A stretch of DNA of 64,000 nucleotides from Candidatus Aenigmatarchaeota archaeon (GTDB lineage: Archaea > Aenigmatarchaeota > Aenigmatarchaeia > QMZP01 > QMZT01). The DNA lies in NCBI GenBank assembly GCA_041489155.1, contig JBGPQP010000004.1, positions 1 to 64,000 on the forward strand, read 5' to 3'. Every line of letters begins with the position of its first letter. Within the stretch, counting starts at the first letter, position 1. The position numbers were made by a program. Below are positions 36,001 to 42,000 of this stretch, in pieces.

Positions 36001-39000
36001 ATCTCCAGCTTGTCCAGGTCCCTGACGAACTGCGCCTCCTTCGTTTTCCGCTCTTCAAATTCCTTCCACAGACCGGTGATTTCCTTCGCCGTTTCATCCG
36101 GCAGGAGCGAAACGATTTTTTTCATGCCTTCTTCCTCGAGTTTTTTCTTCATCTTACCGGGCATCGTCCTGTCCTCTTTCCTGATCCTGCTGGGGATGTC
36201 GCCGGAATAGGCCTCGCACAGGTCGTGGACAAGCGCGAGCTTCACGCACCTGCCGGAATCCAGGCCCGTCTGTTTCGCATAGACGTAAGCCAGAACAGCC
36301 AGCATGAAGGAGTGGTCGGCAACGCTCTCGGACGCTTTAACGCCCTTGAGAATCCAGCCTGCCCTTTTCAGGTGCTTGAGTTTCAAAACTTTTGCCGCAA
36401 AATCCAGCAAATCCATAAAATCAATATTGTGCAGGGTTTTTTATAGGACTGGGCACATTATTTAAAATCCAGACACATAATAAACACTGCAAATAAATAG
36501 ATGCGGGGGTACCCAAGCGGTCAAAGGGGCTAGGCTAAGGTTCACGGCTTTGTCGTAATCTGGCCTGAAGAGAGGGTTAATCCCTTGATGATTAGAAACC
36601 TAGTGCTTTAGTAGCTTCCAGGGTTCGAAAGCGCATGAAGTAGGTAAAACCTGCTTCGCTCGGAATTCCCTGCTCCCGCATTAAATTTATATATTCGCCT
36701 GATAATATTTAGAGATAATTAGCACAATGGTGATTTGTTTGAAAATCAAGGTCATCAGCAAGAAGGGAGAGAATTTCAGGTTTCTTCTGGAGGGGGCGAA
36801 TCCCGCCTTCGCAAATACGCTCAGAAGGATAATGATATCGGAAGTACCGAACATGACCATCGATTCTGTCGAATTCCAGGACAACACGTCAGCGCTGTTC
36901 GACGAAATAATCGCGCACAGGATGGGCATGATACCTTTGCAGTTCGATCCGGACAAGTTCAACGTCATGAAGGACTGCAAATGCGAGGGCAAAGGCTGCC
37001 CGTCATGCCAAGTTTTCTTCGCGCTGGAAAAGACAGGACCGGCGATGGTTTATTCATCCGACCTGAAATCATCGAACAAGAGCGTAAGGCCTACTTCACC
37101 GGATTTCCCGATAGTCAAGCTGCTCAAGGACCAGCACCTGAAGATGGAAGCGACCGCGAGGCTCGGAACCGGCAGGGAGCATGCCAAATTCCAGTCAGCC
37201 AACGTGGCTTACAATTATTTGCCTACCATAGAGGCTTCAAGCTCAGAGGATTTCAAAAGGGTCGTAAGCGCCTGCCCCAAGGGCGTGCTGGAAGTAAAGA
37301 ACAGGAAGCTTGTTCTGGTCGACCCCTACGCATGCAACGAATGCAAGATGTGCGAGGAAACGGACGAGGGGGTAAAGATGAAGGGGGATCCGACGAAATT
37401 CGTGTTCAAGGTCGAGAGCATCTCGGGCCTTGAGCCGGAGTACATAGTCGAGAGGGCCGTGCAGATTCTCGAGGAGAAGGCGAAGGACTTCAAGGAACAA
37501 CTGAAGGAAGTGTAGCATGACGCTGAAGCTCATCGTCTCCTGGATTTTCGGAGGGGCGCTGATAGCAGCGGCCGCGTGGATTCTTGGCCATCTCGACGAG
37601 ACACTGGGCGTTTCGCCTGCATCGTACTGGACCGCGTTTTTCCTTGCCTTCGTGCTCATACTCATAGGCGGCCTAGCGTGGATAAGCGTCGCCACGGCGA
37701 CGTCGAAGCACTAACACGGGAATAAATTCTGAAAAAGCGGTCTGATTCTTGGAAACATTCGCAAGGAATAAAAAGGGGTTGCGACCAATAATAAAGCATG
37801 TTGAACGAAAACGAGATGCAGATACTGGGAGTTTTCAGCCAGCGCCTCCTCATCAGAAGGGACGAGCTGAGAAGCGTCCTTGCTGAGAGCGGCGTCAACG
37901 ACGGCACGATGACGATAAACAGGCTCAGTAGCCTCGGATACCTGAAGTTCATCGAGGCCGTGGGCGCTCCGTGCTACACGATAACGCAAGAGGGGATCAG
38001 GGCACTTAAAAAATAAGTTATAAGCCCCTTCTTTCTTATTATAAATTACTTAGCACAACGTAGATACGCTGATGCAGGTTGAACCTGCGTCTTTTGAGAC
38101 GTTAGCCCCGTGTTGTAGCGGTCAAGCATAAATTTAAACATACAAATTCAACTATATATATGAGGGTAAAACTTTTAGATGGCAAACAAAGAGCATTAAT
38201 AGAGCAAGTAAAAAATAAAAATAATTTTAATTTTAAAGAACTTTCGACATTTCTACGCGTCAATGGAGCAGCATTAAGAGAATGGTATTATGAAAGATGT
38301 CTTTTACCTTACAATATTTTTAGAAAGTTAGATGAAGAAAAAAACTTCGAAAAATTTATAATGGAAATTAGAGAACAGAACTGGGGTCAAAGAGATGGGG
38401 GTAAAAAATCATATGGGAACACAAAGAAAATAAAAAAACCGCTTTTCGACGAAAGATTGGCAGAACTCGTGGGTATTTTATTAGGAGATGGCAACATCTA
38501 TTCGTATAGAAATGTGAAAAACGGTAAAGTAATATCGACGCATAGTATAAGAATTTGTGGTGATTCCAGAAATGATCACGAGTATGTAACGGAACATGTT
38601 TCAAATTTGTTACAAAATCTTTTTGAAATAAAAACTCGTTTGTACAAAAGTAAAAAAAGAAACGCAGTTTATGTAATAGCTGATGGAATTGAACTAGTGA
38701 AATTTTTCAATTCATTTGGCTTGAAACCCGGAAATAAGATAAAAAACAATCTTACGATTCCAGAATGGATATGGCAAGATCCAGTATTTTTGAAATCTTG
38801 CATACGTGGTTTATTTGATACGGATGGTTCAATCTATGAATTAAAACCGCATTGGCCGGGTTTGATTCAAATATCGTTCAGAAATTATAATAAACTCCTC
38901 CTGAAAGATGTAGAAAGAGCCTTGAAACAATTAGGTTTCATTACATCGAAAATACATGACAAAAAAATTTGCATAACGAAACAAAATGAAGTTGATAAAT

Positions 39001-42000
39001 TTTTTAAGGAGATAAAACCTAATAATCCTAAACACGTTAAGAAATATGAAAAAATCAGAAGCCCCGTGGTGTAGCGGCCAAGCATTTTTCTGTATTTTTG
39101 ATTGCAGAAAAATGGGCTAGGCATGCAGGGCTTTGGATTCACAAAGCTTCCAAAGCTTTGAGAACCCCCCACTAAGGGATTTCCGTGAACGCTTTGGCGG
39201 ACGCGGAAGCTCCTTCAGGGGTTCTGTGAAAGAAGAAACCCGGCGACGGCGGTTCGAATCCGCCCGGGGCTATCCTTTCTCAATCAAATGTGATAAAAAG
39301 TGTAAGTTCCCCTCGTGTCCCTGCCCTGGCCGGAGACTGCGATGGTGATGGTCAGGGGATTGTTGGGCGGGGTTTTGCCCCAGTTGGAGCAGTTCAGGGC
39401 ATAGAGCATCTCTATAGAATACGTCCTGCCGTACTCCTCCTGGAAAGACGTCTTGAGGTCCTCGAGCCTGTTCTCGAAGCTGTCCTTGGTTTCGTTGCAG
39501 TAATAGGTCTCACGTATGGTCTGGTTGAGGCCGCTTAGTATGTTGTTGAAAATCCGGACGTCCATCGCCATGAAAGGCTCGGTGATGTCGACCTCGGAAT
39601 ACTGGAACAATGCCTGCTGGACGATGAATATCATGCCTACGAGGAAAACGATTGCGACAAGAAACAGCTGGCCCTTTTTCTTCCCCATGAAAATAATTTG
39701 CGCGGCTTAAATAAAAAAACGAAAATGAAAGGAACGAGATAAGACAGAGTGCGACGGAGGGGTGAGTCTCGCTATCGCCCCTGTTATTCCTGCCCCTTTC
39801 CCCTTCAAGCGTCGTCCGGGTCTAAGCAAGCAAGGGTATGCCGAGTTCCATGTGGATGTTCCTCTCCGGAACCGGCAATGTGTGCGTGACTGCGCCGAGC
39901 GGACCCATTACGTATGGCGATTTGACGCCCGTAACAACAGTGATGACCTTCAGCCTGTTTTTGTAAGCCGGGTCTATCCTCGCGCCCCATATCACCGGAG
40001 CGTCGGGATCCAGCTGCTTCGAGACGTACTCGCCTATCCTGCTTACCTCTTCGAGTTTGAGGTCGTAGCCGCCGGTTATGTGTATGAGCGCGCCTGTCCC
40101 GCCGTGGTAATCCACGTCAAGCAGCGGGTGCGACATCGCCCTTATTATCGCTTCTTCGGCTCGCTCTTTGCCGTCGGATTCGCCGAAGCCTACGGTGGAG
40201 ACACCACCGATTTGCATTATCGCCTTTACGTCGGCGTAGTCCAGATTGACGAGCGAAGGCTGCGATATCGTCTCGGTTATGCCCTTTATCATGTTCGCAA
40301 CCAAGTCGTCGGCGACATAGAACGCTTGTTTCAGCGGAAGGTTGCCTGCTATCTTCAAAAGCCTGTCGTTCTCTATCGCTATAACAGTGTCAGAAACCTG
40401 CCTCAATGCGTACAAACCGTCCTCCGCCTTGTTCATTCTAGCGCCCTCGACCTTGAAAGGCATGGTCACGTTCGCTATTACTATCGCACCCATCTCCTTC
40501 GCTATCCTCGCGATCACAGGCGCCCCGCCTGTTCCCGTTCCTCCACCCATTCCGGCGACAAGGAACAGCATGTCTATGCCTTCCAGCATCTTCTTTATTT
40601 CCCTCTCGCTCTCTTCTGTCGCCTTTTTGCCTACTCCCGGATATCCTCCTGCACCAAGACCCCTCGTTACCTCCCTGCCGAGCAAAAGCTTTTCGTGCGC
40701 ATTGGTCATGCCAAGGTGTTTCGCGTCCGTATTCATCGCCACGGTCTTCGCTCCCAGGATGCCTATGTCGGTCAGCCTGGATATCGTGTTGTTGCCGCCT
40801 CCGCCCACGCCTACGACCAGAATCTTCGCGCCCATCATGTCCAGGTCGAACTCCTCCTTTATCCTCTGGTAGCAGTCTGTTGTCGAGCCACCTCCCTTGA
40901 CCGGCTCAGCCTCTTGCTTCTTGGCCTCTGCCGGCTTGGCTTCCGTTACGGATGCCGTTTCTATCGCCGCCTCCATCGCCTTCACGGCGGTTTCGGCCGA
41001 TTCCTGCGCTTCCGTTGCTTCCATGCTAACTCACCCCTCATTGAATCTTGCACCCCGCCGCCGGAAATTATATGCTCCATCATTCATTTTCCAGTGTCGA
41101 AATGCTTTTATGTTCTTTTCTCAATTATTTTCCAAGAACTAGCTTATACTCAAGGATAACACCAAAGAACCAAATTCAATGAACTCAATTCGTCGCCAAA
41201 CGAACTGGGTTCGCACGAAGGCAACTTCGCCAAAAGTTGCCTGTTAATTCCCTTTTTCTGCGCAGTTTAAAACGTTGTCAGTAAATAATTCCATTTTTGC
41301 TATATAAGCTTTTGCTACCCCTTCCGGCGAAAAGGAGGCTTTTTAGGTCTTTTTTCGCTTGCTTCAGGAGGCTCTTTCCCGGCAAAAACAGCGGCGACAT
41401 ATAGCGAAAAGTCCCTGCAGAAAGCTTTATAAAGCATGGATTTAATTACTTATCAGAGATAACACAATTAGAGGTTAAAGGAAAGGGTGTGTGGGATGAG
41501 AAACGCATTCAAAAAATATCTCAAAGGTGAAAGAAACATTTTCATAGATCCAGAAATAAGCCTTGGAGCAAGGCAGTCCTACGTAAACGAAGGCCCTGCT
41601 TACAATTCGCTTGCCGGGCTCTTCCTTGAACTCGGAGGCAAGGTAATAAAAGGCCTGATAAAAGGCCTCACCGAAGAGGATCTCACAGGAGGCAAATACT
41701 ACGGGCCACTCCAGATAGGAAAGAAAATATTTCATCTCGCCAACAGCGCTTACATAGGCGAATTCCTCGATAAAAACGGCGGCAAGTCGGATGAGATAAA
41801 CCTGGGCGCGCAGCACGAAGGCGTAAAGCTCATGAACCCCTTTTCGGCAAAATACGGAGTTCCACCGGGAGAGGTAGCCATACACGAAACACTGCACGAA
41901 AAATTCCCGAATGCAAGCGAAGCCGAAATAACGCAGGCTGCAAGAATGCTTGCGCAGAAATACGAAGTGGCTCTAAACTGAAAGGTGTAATTGAAAATGA

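Follow-up and report, generated by a model that had tools for sequence, protein, structure and literature searches.

A putative mobile LAGLIDADG endonuclease cassette with a replacement 5' exon and a mini-intron in an archaeal tRNA-Gln(UUG) gene

Related mobile endonuclease genes and tRNA introns

The replacement-exon principle is already known from fungal mitochondria, where mobile ORFs (mORFs) carry a replacement gene end in atp6 of Allomyces and in atp6, atp9, cox2, and nad3 of Glomus, with a horizontal origin deduced for them (PMC3630166). Like the mORFs, the locus described here has a free-standing LAGLIDADG gene (GIY-YIG genes also occur among mORFs) inserted in a conserved gene. In both, the displaced end is supplied anew as a foreign copy that abuts the ORF or is fused with it, and the native end persists nearby as a duplicate, which in mORFs is unexpressed. 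The mORFs, however, belong to organelles and replace the C-terminal (3') part of a protein-coding gene, whereas here, in an archaeal host, a tRNA gene has had its 5' part replaced, a bulge-helix-bulge (BHB)-type intron is added at the junction, and the tRNA supplies the ORF stop codon. Judged by its sequence, the cassette appears to be a replacement-end mobile ORF in mirrored orientation. A second parallel is the collaborative (trans) homing of phages, represented by F-CphI with the psbA intron and by mobE with I-TevIII (PMC3984707, PMC6083498, PMC2790892). In both situations the intron does not contain the endonuclease gene, the two can be inherited together or apart, and the intron is positioned so as to interrupt the enzyme target, which is presumed here since the intron lies at the cassette join. 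Whereas the phage introns are self-splicing group I introns in protein genes, ours lies in a tRNA D-loop, would be an archaeal intron spliced by proteins, and has a presumed target. The best reading by analogy is that the cassette would mirror the fungal mobile ORFs, with an intron at the presumed target as in collaborative homing.

The window protein is also comparable to I-DmoI and I-Tsp061I of archaeal rRNA introns, which are likewise monomeric two-motif archaeal enzymes associated with BHB introns, at a sequence identity of ~20% to this group; in those cases the ORF lies within the rRNA intron, whereas here it is upstream of the intron and overlaps the tRNA 5' exon. Transposition of tRNA introns in Thermoproteales was reportedly deduced in a paper from 2010, and we know of no protein-coding mobility agent linked to the tRNA introns of Thermoproteales or ARMAN-2. 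Those introns resemble ours in being short, of BHB or relaxed-BHB form, and located in the D-loop and other positions, and Fujishima et al. describe non-canonical tRNA introns and an ARMAN-2 splicing endonuclease accepting relaxed motifs (PMC3239211). SegB of phage T4 is a homing endonuclease whose gene is embedded among tRNA genes, as is ours, and on which the preferred inheritance of the tRNA gene region of T4 depends (PMC2330249). In contrast to the cassette, SegB belongs to the GIY-YIG family and to a phage, and is not known to involve exon replacement or an intron. SegB is also said to cut a tRNA gene of a related phage. Literature searches yielded no description of an endonuclease cassette of this kind in tRNA genes; the priority suggested in the first-pass annotation is unprovable.

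Structure of the tRNA-Gln(UUG) locus

An AT-rich insert of ~1 kb (38130-39120) interrupts the tRNA-Gln(UUG) gene of Candidatus Aenigmatarchaeota archaeon (genome G000) in the window, i.e. the whole 64-kb stretch of DNA that was analyzed, and its features are listed in Table 1. The GC content is ~30% in 38100-39100 versus ~52% in the flanks. The anatomy proposed in a first-pass annotation, an endonuclease gene, a replacement 5' exon, and a mini-intron, was confirmed, as was the placement of the LAGLIDADG ORF between a copy of the tRNA 5' end and the full tRNA gene, with its stop codon TAG (39072-39074) formed by tRNA nt 13-15. The flanking repeats (38104-38129 and 39060-39085), earlier counted as 23/26 identical, match at 24/26 positions on recounting; when up to 3 mismatches are allowed, the window contains no other such pair, the chance expectation being 0.00. 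The upstream copy differs by G10→U and C20→U and keeps the ancestral place behind a putative promoter and a leader common to the same-genus genome G001, where the string ttattataaattacttagca also precedes the uninterrupted tRNA-Gln (locus L004). Positions 22-25 are present on both sides of the insert in the window, L031, and L015 (GCAT, GCAT, and GGAT, respectively), a duplication that may point indirectly to the double-strand cut with 4-nt 3' overhangs that LAGLIDADG enzymes make in element-free alleles. Contigs from independent metagenome runs span both insert junctions with zero differences, and the insert is therefore not an assembly chimera. The sequencing runs listed as containing the stretch include no RNA run. 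Since only one Gln(UUG) gene was found in the genome, the tRNA with the cassette should be functional.

Table 1. Features of the interrupted tRNA-Gln(UUG) locus
Feature	Position	Strand	Basis or remark
TATA-like stretch ttattataaatt and leader, resembling an ancestral tRNA-Gln promoter	38036..38047	+	putative promoter function, from sequence
Remnant of original tRNA-Gln 5' part, 26 nt, positions 1-25	38104..38129	+	repeat and ancestral position
Left end of insert AAATTTAAAC, TATA-like box ~21-30 nt before ATG, leaderless-type spacing	38130..38159	+	putative promoter function
LAGLIDADG homing endonuclease gene, 304 aa, stop codon within tRNA	38160..39074	+	Pfam LAGLIDADG_3
Replacement 5' exon of tRNA-Gln(UUG), positions 1-21, overlapping last 15 nt of ORF	39060..39081	+	
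D-loop mini-intron, 39 nt	39082..39120	+	solver, MFE fold, absence from orthologues
Exon 2, positions 22-37, anticodon UUG at 39133-39135	39121..39136	+	
Canonical intron, 101 nt, at 37/38	39137..39237	+	central helix CUUU/GAAG read by hand
Exon 3, positions 38-73	39238..39272	+	

The two introns reported earlier, 39 nt in the D-arm and 101 nt at 37/38, and the anticodon UUG were recovered in the exon solution of Table 1, in which the exons equal the uninterrupted G001 orthologue except for one base and the 39-nt intron is placed before tRNA position 22. ARAGORN with introns allowed proved much too lenient when given brute-force deletions, scoring 8569 hits among 10719 variants; we therefore base the solution on comparison with the orthologue and on our own stricter cloverleaf and BHB solver. 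The mini-intron has a central helix GGCC (39076-79)/GGCU (39115-18), a 5' bulge AAG (39080-82), and an inner helix of 10-12 bp (39083-94/39103-14 in the 12-bp MFE fold), with a solver BHB score of (4,12,0). Its 3' site lies within a 3x2 internal loop instead of a strict 3-nt bulge, a relaxed BHB form, and the MFE fold yields this structure at -30.3 kcal/mol (z -2.93). The central helix covaries across 34 introns at the D-loop site (C-G 11, U-A 10, U-G 4, C-A 0; Fisher p 5e-4). In G000 a single frame codes for a splicing endonuclease that matches the catalytic domain twice, and a DPANN splicing endonuclease with duplicated catalytic units cuts relaxed motifs (PMC3239211). The D-arm intron was earlier held to be unique among orthologues, and it is indeed absent from those of 10 relatives; relatives carry introns at 37/38 too, and the 101-nt intron, being GC-normal, is probably native.

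The ORF matches Pfam LAGLIDADG_3 in two stretches (E 2.7e-14) and encodes an N-terminal helical domain (approximately residues 1-80) followed by two LAGLIDADG domains, with motif 1 ending in GILLGDG and motif 2 in GLFDTDG. Residues E102, G105, G109, D110, G111, R216, G217, D220, and G223 are invariant in 24 homologues and D222 is kept in at least 90% of them, so that the catalytic Asp is intact and conserved in both motifs. The AlphaFold model (pLDDT 93.3) predicts a single-chain, two-motif protein with the pseudo-dimeric αββαββα LAGLIDADG fold, and resembles archaeal intron and intein endonucleases, the best Foldseek matches (probability 1.00) being PI-PfuI (E 7.8e-10), I-Tsp061I, and I-DmoI, with TM scores for the two rRNA-intron enzymes, each normalized to the target, of 0.76 (2dch) and 0.70 (2vs7). 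A paralogue at G000:C7:19524-20117 ends inside tRNA-Ser(GCU), which has a D-loop intron of 31-33 nt, in agreement with the earlier description of an overlap.

Allelic states and recurrence

The reported lack of the LAGLIDADG gene in congeners holds, and in G001-G004 the upstream gene and promoter are followed directly by tRNA-Gln with an uninterrupted D-arm. A reciprocal case occurs in the same genus, where G002 carries a cassette at tRNA-Gln(CUG) and the same site is empty in G000. In genus g15 the orthologous tRNA-Gln(CUG) is found empty (G036), with the intron only (G304, G307), and with the full cassette (G033). Close relatives thus differ in presence and absence at the same site, as expected of a homing element. 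In a quick tree the nearest relatives of the window endonuclease belong to other orders and phyla and not to its own genus, and the element shows the discordance with host phylogeny and the foreign composition (GC 0.30 versus 0.52) that characterize such elements.

The claim that the cassette recurs in DPANN was borne out, with the same D-loop/D-stem junction used in many genomes and several tRNA types. A tRNA was found at the ORF end in 79 of 99 unique homologous loci, 59 of the 79 being tRNA-Gln; the other 20 loci are unsolved, the intron calls outside the window come from our own solver, and related genomes among the 99 loci make them non-independent samples. In 35 loci the tRNA start precedes the last nucleotide of the stop codon by 14 nt, and in 15 loci by 9 nt. 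An upstream remnant of the 5' part (score ≥12) is seen in 22/79 loci compared with 0/79 within-ORF controls; the remnants terminate at tRNA nt 22-28, and in 17 of the 22 clear-remnant loci the ATG lies 30-39 nt beyond the remnant, which is followed by AT-rich, TATA-like sequence. Preservation ranges from a perfect remnant in L031 (26/26) to decayed ones in L015 and L035. In the quick tree the endonucleases group by type of tRNA. An intron at 21/22 (±2) is present in 34/79 loci, and 31/79 have no D-arm intron, indicating that the mini-intron is not required for the cassette.

Proposed mobility and competing explanations

Cassette anatomy, insertion polymorphism, recurrence, and intron-helix covariation are established, and on comparison of sequences the segment 38130-39120 is probably a mobile homing-endonuclease cassette that entered tRNA-Gln(UUG) at the D-loop/D-stem junction (positions 21-25) with a replacement 5' exon. 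From these observations we infer a course of events that involves cleavage at a target site, immunity of the carrier, expression, and splicing, as follows. The LAGLIDADG enzyme would cut the D-arm of an uninterrupted tRNA gene, and the cassette-bearing allele would serve as the template for break repair. Copied in from left to right would be the TATA-like start, the endonuclease ORF, the replacement positions 1-21, continuous with the end of the ORF, and the short BHB-type intron, and the recipient's own 5' part would stay upstream as a decaying remnant. A working tRNA would arise from the replacement 5' exon once the host splicing endonuclease has excised both introns (39 nt and 101 nt). Cassette and gene join precisely at the mini-intron, which presumably splits the enzyme target and so protects the carrier allele; intronless cassettes appear to carry altered D-stems instead. 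A D-loop intron without an ORF could be left after recombination between the two 5'-part repeats, or after repair using the inner copy only.

The strongest competing explanation, which we consider unlikely, departs from a mobile cassette solely in which came first: ORF-less 21/22 introns would be old, independent residents of DPANN tRNA-Gln genes, and a free-standing endonuclease targeting the same site would drag the intron-bearing tRNA part along by co-conversion, with no general creation or spread of introns. Such collaborative homing is documented for phage group I introns (PMC3984707), and of the 9 tRNA-Gln genes that match the intron pattern, 8 share this design and lack any endonuclease within 1.5 kb, so the intron may be an independent, older element. 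D-region introns free of endonucleases are also frequent in G000, where our solver places a D-region insertion in 11/22 tRNAs, two of them endonuclease-linked and nine with no adjoining endonuclease gene. However, the remnants in the window, L031, L113, and L015 derive from intron-less alleles, which argues that in these lineages the intron arrived with the cassette, and genus g15 has an empty allele beside its intron-only and cassette alleles.

It is highly improbable that 38104-38125 is the true 5' exon, with ~995 nt including the endonuclease gene spliced out as one giant BHB intron and the inner copy incidental. LAGLIDADG enzymes are indeed encoded by BHB introns of archaeal rRNA genes (PMC6125680), the fold of the window protein matches I-DmoI and I-Tsp061I, and the upstream copy sits behind the ancestral promoter and retains a 4-bp central helix (GGUC/GGCU) with a shared 3' site, but its inner helix has only 3 bp compared with 12 bp for the mini-intron and its U10 faces U25. 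Upstream copies elsewhere lack the acceptor strand or are wholly decayed (L015, L035, L032/33), and hence are not under selection. It is hardly credible, either, that the endonuclease is an immobile fossil or domesticated gene, kept since the tRNA depends on transcription of the inserted gene or for another role of the protein. In favor of this reading, the tRNA-Ser(GCU) paralogue is GC-ameliorated with Arg replacing the second catalytic Asp and no remnant, uninterrupted tRNAs and decayed remnants are seen at many loci, and no element-free allele of the tRNA-Gln(UUG) locus appeared in four metagenome runs, which also counts against a mobile cassette, but the window copy is AT-rich and foreign-looking with both catalytic Asp present, its remnant is nearly intact, and the cassette is missing from four congeners.

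Other classes of element were considered for the insert. No integrase or recombinase gene was found between the repeats, as an integrase-type element at a tRNA gene would need: apart from the LAGLIDADG gene the 1-kb insert has no ORF that reaches 100 aa, the next-longest (95 aa, minus strand, 38885-39172) lying only partly inside. A ribozyme core of a group I or group II intron was not recovered by covariance models either. An Rfam scan of 37300-39900 (E≤1) returned no group I intron match and, for group II introns, one weak 47-nt match on the minus strand (Plastid-ycf3 group II-D1; 19.5 bits versus a gathering score of 55.2, E 0.18).

Taking the insert as a mobile cassette, the data suggest a route by which archaeal tRNA introns might spread. 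The first-pass annotation had the cassette explain the origin of D-arm introns; it can account for some of them and not for D-arm introns in general, because endonuclease-free ones are common in G000. We propose only tentatively, as a possibility with the odds somewhat against it, that this LAGLIDADG cassette family is a DNA-level vehicle seeding short protein-spliced introns into archaeal tRNA genes. In such a cycle the D-arm would be cut, repair would install the endonuclease gene, the replacement 5' exon, and a target-shielding mini-intron, and later recombination of the two 5' exon copies would remove the endonuclease gene and keep an ORF-less D-loop intron, while intron-free carrier alleles would escape self-cutting via compensatory D-stem changes. 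If this is true, the D-stem of tRNA-Gln in DPANN archaea would in addition evolve unusually fast, driven by the cassette; the D-stem contrast bearing on immunity, canonical in 19/23 versus 4/25, is confounded by lineage, as intronless loci cluster on the tree.

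Architecture of the tRNA-Gln(UUG) locus

The LAGLIDADG ORF is flanked by two copies of the tRNA-Gln 5' part, and the positions of these and associated features are collected in the table below. The ATG of the ORF lies 21 nt past the end of the TATA-like box AAATTTAAAC, and the ORF runs into the second tRNA copy, whose first 15 nt are the end of the ORF with its TAG stop codon. The two copies are identical at 24 of 26 positions on recounting, correcting the 23/26 of the first-pass annotation, and with three mismatches allowed the window holds no other such pair (0.00 expected by chance). 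The GC content is ~0.30 across 38100-39100 compared with ~0.52 on either side. The upstream copy follows a presumed promoter and leader that in G001, a genome of the same genus, lie immediately before the intact tRNA, which identifies this copy as the old 5' part and assigns the inner one to the insert. Two substitutions mark the old copy: G10 to U, which breaks the first D-stem pair, and C20 to U. Both junctions of the insert are covered without difference by contigs of independent sediment metagenome runs (X1 records 37924-38763 and 38768-39900; X2 record 37300-38143), and in the four runs compared, all of them DNA, no contig skipped the insert or joined across it; a look-up of runs with this stretch turned up no RNA run. 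The 5' leader of tRNA-Gln contains a predicted hairpin, also found upstream of tRNA-Gln at L005, L007, L009, L011 and L013, in which the sequence varies and the pairing is kept; it reads GCAGGTTGAACCTGC plus GTCTTTTGAGA in the window and is followed by CCTTCGA or a similar string in most relatives.

Coordinates of features in the window and elsewhere in its genome (G000)
Feature	Position	Strand	Remark
Segment described	38036-39272	+
TATA-like stretch and leader, upstream end	from 38036	+	common to G001
Leader hairpin	38060-38103
26-nt copy of tRNA-Gln 5' part	38104-38129	+	old 5' part
AT-rich segment after the 26-nt copy		+	opens with AAATTTAAAC
LAGLIDADG ORF	38160-39074	+	304 aa
Second copy of tRNA 5' part	39060-39085	+
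tRNA exons	39060-39081, 39121-39136, 39238-39272		top-ranked solver solution
Splicing endonuclease gene	G000:C7:39150-39626		single 404-aa open frame
D-region insertions, examples	G000:C3:6549-6742, G000:C6:49970-50108, G000:C1:52457-52569		putative, called by the solver

The interrupted tRNA and its introns

No tRNA was detected at this place by ARAGORN without introns, and an Rfam scan of 37300-39900 gave nothing at gathering score, neither a tRNA nor a group I intron. Allowing introns on the raw region made ARAGORN call a false tRNA-Arg, and its use as a solver with brute-force single deletions was dropped, as 10719 variants of the region yielded 8569 "tRNAs". When 39082-39120 is taken out, ARAGORN recovers a clean cloverleaf with a 101-nt anticodon-loop intron at 36/37; with this intron at the canonical 37/38 the anticodon is UUG, and the central helix, read by hand, has the 4 bp CUUU/GAAG. 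In our own solver, cloverleaf rules are used together with conserved bases and a bulge-helix-bulge (BHB) score; its top-ranked solution has a 39-nt intron in the D-loop, before position 22, and the 101-nt intron at 37/38. At the level of sequence, the strongest support for this predicted structure is the comparison with relatives: the G001 orthologue has identical exons except for one base, the 37/38 intron only and no ORF, and the D-arm intron is also absent in nine further relatives. The window gene should be functional, because no other tRNA-Gln(UUG) gene was found in the genome, which is ~90% complete.

The predicted fold of the 39-nt intron (MFE -30.3 kcal/mol, z -2.93) pairs the D-loop GGCC (G18 G19 C20 C20a) with GGCU near the intron 3' end. 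The 5' splice site is positioned in a 3-nt bulge, AAG, followed by a 12-bp inner helix, and the 3' site lies within a 3x2 internal loop, so that the modelled motif is a relaxed and not a strict BHB. The splicing endonuclease gene of the genome has two catalytic-domain matches and resembles the three-unit enzyme of ARMAN-2 as described in PMC3239211, where a DPANN enzyme with duplicated catalytic units cuts relaxed motifs.

The endonuclease family and its tRNA partners

The window ORF matches LAGLIDADG_3 in two stretches (E 2.7e-14). Both motifs, LAExxGIxLGDG and CIRGLxDTDG, are conserved in an alignment of 24 homologues, in which Asp-110 and Asp-220 (D110, D220) never vary and at least 90% of the sequences have D222. 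With a pLDDT of 93.3 the AlphaFold model is confident, and its best structural matches are archaeal enzymes, including PI-PfuI (E 7.8e-10), the rRNA-intron enzyme I-Tsp061I and I-DmoI (TM 0.76 and 0.70, respectively, normalised to the target), whereas a direct PDB sequence search gave only marginal intein matches (E 0.016). Residues 1-80 form an additional helical domain that is missing from shorter family members. The second family member of the genome, on contig C7, ends within a tRNA-Ser(GCU) that has a 31-33 nt D-loop intron; this copy has normal GC content, an Arg replacing the second catalytic Asp and no upstream remnant, and looks like an old, degenerate resident.

Homologues at E<=1e-5 are present in 166 of the 371 genomes of the phylum, and a species-representative collection contains 488 matching stretches, nearly all labelled DPANN. 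The window, 27 loci from phylum genomes and 80 of the 488 stretches were analyzed, leaving 99 unique loci after removal of 9 duplicates. A tRNA at the ORF end was solved in 79 of these; the intron calls beyond the window rest on our own solver, and counts across loci are not independent events, the genomes being related. By eye, several of the 20 loci that the solver left unsolved are tRNA-Gln genes with introns elsewhere (L017, L023/25, L024, L038, L041), and no tRNA is visible at L030. The solved tRNAs are 59 Gln (38 CUG, 21 UUG), 12 Glu, 4 Asp, 2 Pro, 1 Ser and 1 doubtful case. The tRNA begins before the ORF is over, 14 nt ahead of the end of the stop codon at 35 loci and 9 nt ahead at 15, with the stop being UAG at tRNA positions 13-15 or 8-10. 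A conserved C-terminal coding motif was considered as a site of the tRNA promoter; its distance to the tRNA start varies between 27 and 54 nt in 48 loci, with an outlier of 120, so no promoter is claimed there.

The D-arm carries an intron at 21/22 +-2 in 34 of the 79 loci, on the 5' side of the D-loop in 11 and after position 25 in 3, and the remaining 31 have no D-arm intron (27 are fully uninterrupted), in agreement with the first-pass estimate that about half of the homologous loci have an uninterrupted tRNA. The 34 mini-introns (12-53 nt) follow a common design, in which exonic ...GGYCAA is followed across the 5' splice site by an A/U-rich arm, a hairpin and G(G/A)CU A(A/U/G), with GGAU or GCAU beyond the 3' splice site. 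Exon position 20 and its intron partner covary (C-G 11, U-A 10, U-G 4, C-A 0), with a Fisher p of 5e-4 that is overstated since the loci are related. A quick tree groups the endonucleases into clades by tRNA type (Asp 96, Glu-CUC 99, Pro 100, the Gln-UUG clade of the window 99), the intron state changes many times along it, and the window endonuclease has its nearest relatives in other orders and phyla rather than in the same-genus genome G002.

Remnants of old tRNA 5' parts were sought at every solved locus by aligning its tRNA positions 1-31 with the 280 nt around the ORF start, and 280 nt within the ORF served as control. At a score of at least 12, remnants were found upstream in 22 of 79 loci compared with none of 79 in the control (32 and 3, respectively, at a threshold of 10). 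They stop at tRNA nt 22-28, and 17 of the 22 lie 30-39 nt before the ATG and are followed by AT-rich TATA-like sequence. Their state ranges from perfect (26/26 in L031, a tRNA-Asp locus) through half-decayed (L015) to traces (L035, L032, L033); this gradation shows that the upstream copies decay and do not serve as the working exon. Remnants at this score accompany 11 of 34 loci with a mini-intron and 10 of 31 with an uninterrupted tRNA; by eye that of L110 possibly runs into the mini-intron, and the other clear ones correspond to uninterrupted tRNA 1-25. Positions 22-25 are found on both sides of the insert, as GCAT in the window and L031 and as GGAT in L015. LAGLIDADG enzymes typically leave a 4-nt 3' overhang, which this duplication would fit, and it could equally be explained by where recombination resolves.

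More distant family members at L037 (G060:C31) and L042 (G061:C16) lie directly 3' of a complete tRNA-His, with ORFs whose ends overlap or adjoin a fragment of T-arm plus acceptor 3' part, which may represent a mirror-image design replacing the 3' part. Nine family loci (L048, L049, L052, L053, L054, L067, L086, L090, L103) carry record labels of Methanosarcinales, Thermoplasmatales, Hadarchaeota or even the bacterial phylum Paceibacterota; seven of them were solved, the adjoining tRNAs have archaeal Gln-type acceptor stems, and wrong binning may be the source of these labels, which would then not name the true hosts.

Allelic states and the proposed homing cassette

A pattern search with the mini-intron design in the 371 phylum genomes gave nine matches compared with none for the reversed control. 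Eight of them fall in tRNA-Gln genes whose intron occupies the same site, and no endonuclease gene was found within 1.5 kb of these eight (best tblastn E 0.09). In another genus (g15) the orthologous tRNA-Gln(CUG) locus, with its upstream flank and T-loop intron in common, exists in three states: empty in G036, with the intron only in G304 and G307, and with endonuclease gene, remnant and intron in G033. The genus of the window shows a reciprocal pattern, with the cassette at Gln(UUG) and an empty Gln(CUG) in G000, and the cassette at Gln(CUG) in G002, where the downstream flank is 73-74% identical to that of G000.

Judged from these sequences, the window arrangement is best read as a homing-endonuclease cassette that carries a replacement 5' exon. 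In PMC3630166, mobile ORFs of fungal mitochondria bring a foreign C-terminal gene end and the native end stays as an unexpressed duplicate; the replacement-end principle is alike, but here it appears in mirror image and in an archaeal tRNA gene. The mini-intron would split the target and so protect carrier alleles, and an ORF-less intron at the endonuclease's own putative site resembles the "collaborative homing" of phages as outlined in PMC3984707. Recombination between the two 5'-exon repeats would excise the endonuclease gene, and the product would be an allele that has only the intron and is placed under the native promoter; this would account for the three states in g15. The same series could be read in the opposite order, with the intron first. 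Under the cassette reading a second immunity route, a change in the D-stem, can be hypothesized: among tRNA-Gln carriers the D-stem is canonical in 19 of 23 with the intron and in 4 of 25 that are uninterrupted, a contrast confounded with lineage. The uninterrupted carriers have 15 different stem pairs, and their remnants keep the acceptor strand and differ in the D-stem.

The spread of archaeal tRNA introns to non-canonical positions has so far been inferred from sequence similarity, with an agent lacking, and in the openly accessible full-text literature we found neither an endonuclease gene linked to archaeal tRNA introns nor such an arrangement. In the present case a D-arm intron is physically linked, at one defined site, to a presumed mobile element that encodes a protein, and the data combine empty, intron-only and full-cassette alleles in one genus with old 5' exons as footprints. 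The question becomes testable with one enzyme, one 20-30 bp candidate target and one splice junction, and a strategy known from endonuclease genes of fungal mitochondria, the "replacement gene end", would be extended to archaeal RNA genes. In practical terms, standard finders miss tRNA-Gln, Glu and Asp genes in DPANN genomes, and the small ORFs adjoining them are not ordinary genes.

Of the 22 tRNAs solved in the window's genome, 11 have a D-region insertion according to the solver, 28-122 nt long; tRNA-Glu(CUC), for example, has one of 122 nt and tRNA-Pro(CGG) one of 65 nt. Only 2 of the 11 are linked to an endonuclease, the other 9 having no adjoining endonuclease gene, and the cassette, proposed in the first-pass annotation as the source of D-arm introns, therefore does not hold as a general explanation of them. 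A T-loop intron after TTCGAA/TTCAAA (~position 59/60) occurs in many tRNA-Gln and tRNA-Asp genes, both endonuclease-linked and endonuclease-free (L023/L025, L026, L032, L033, L044, L078, L128, L130), and is conserved across genus g15.
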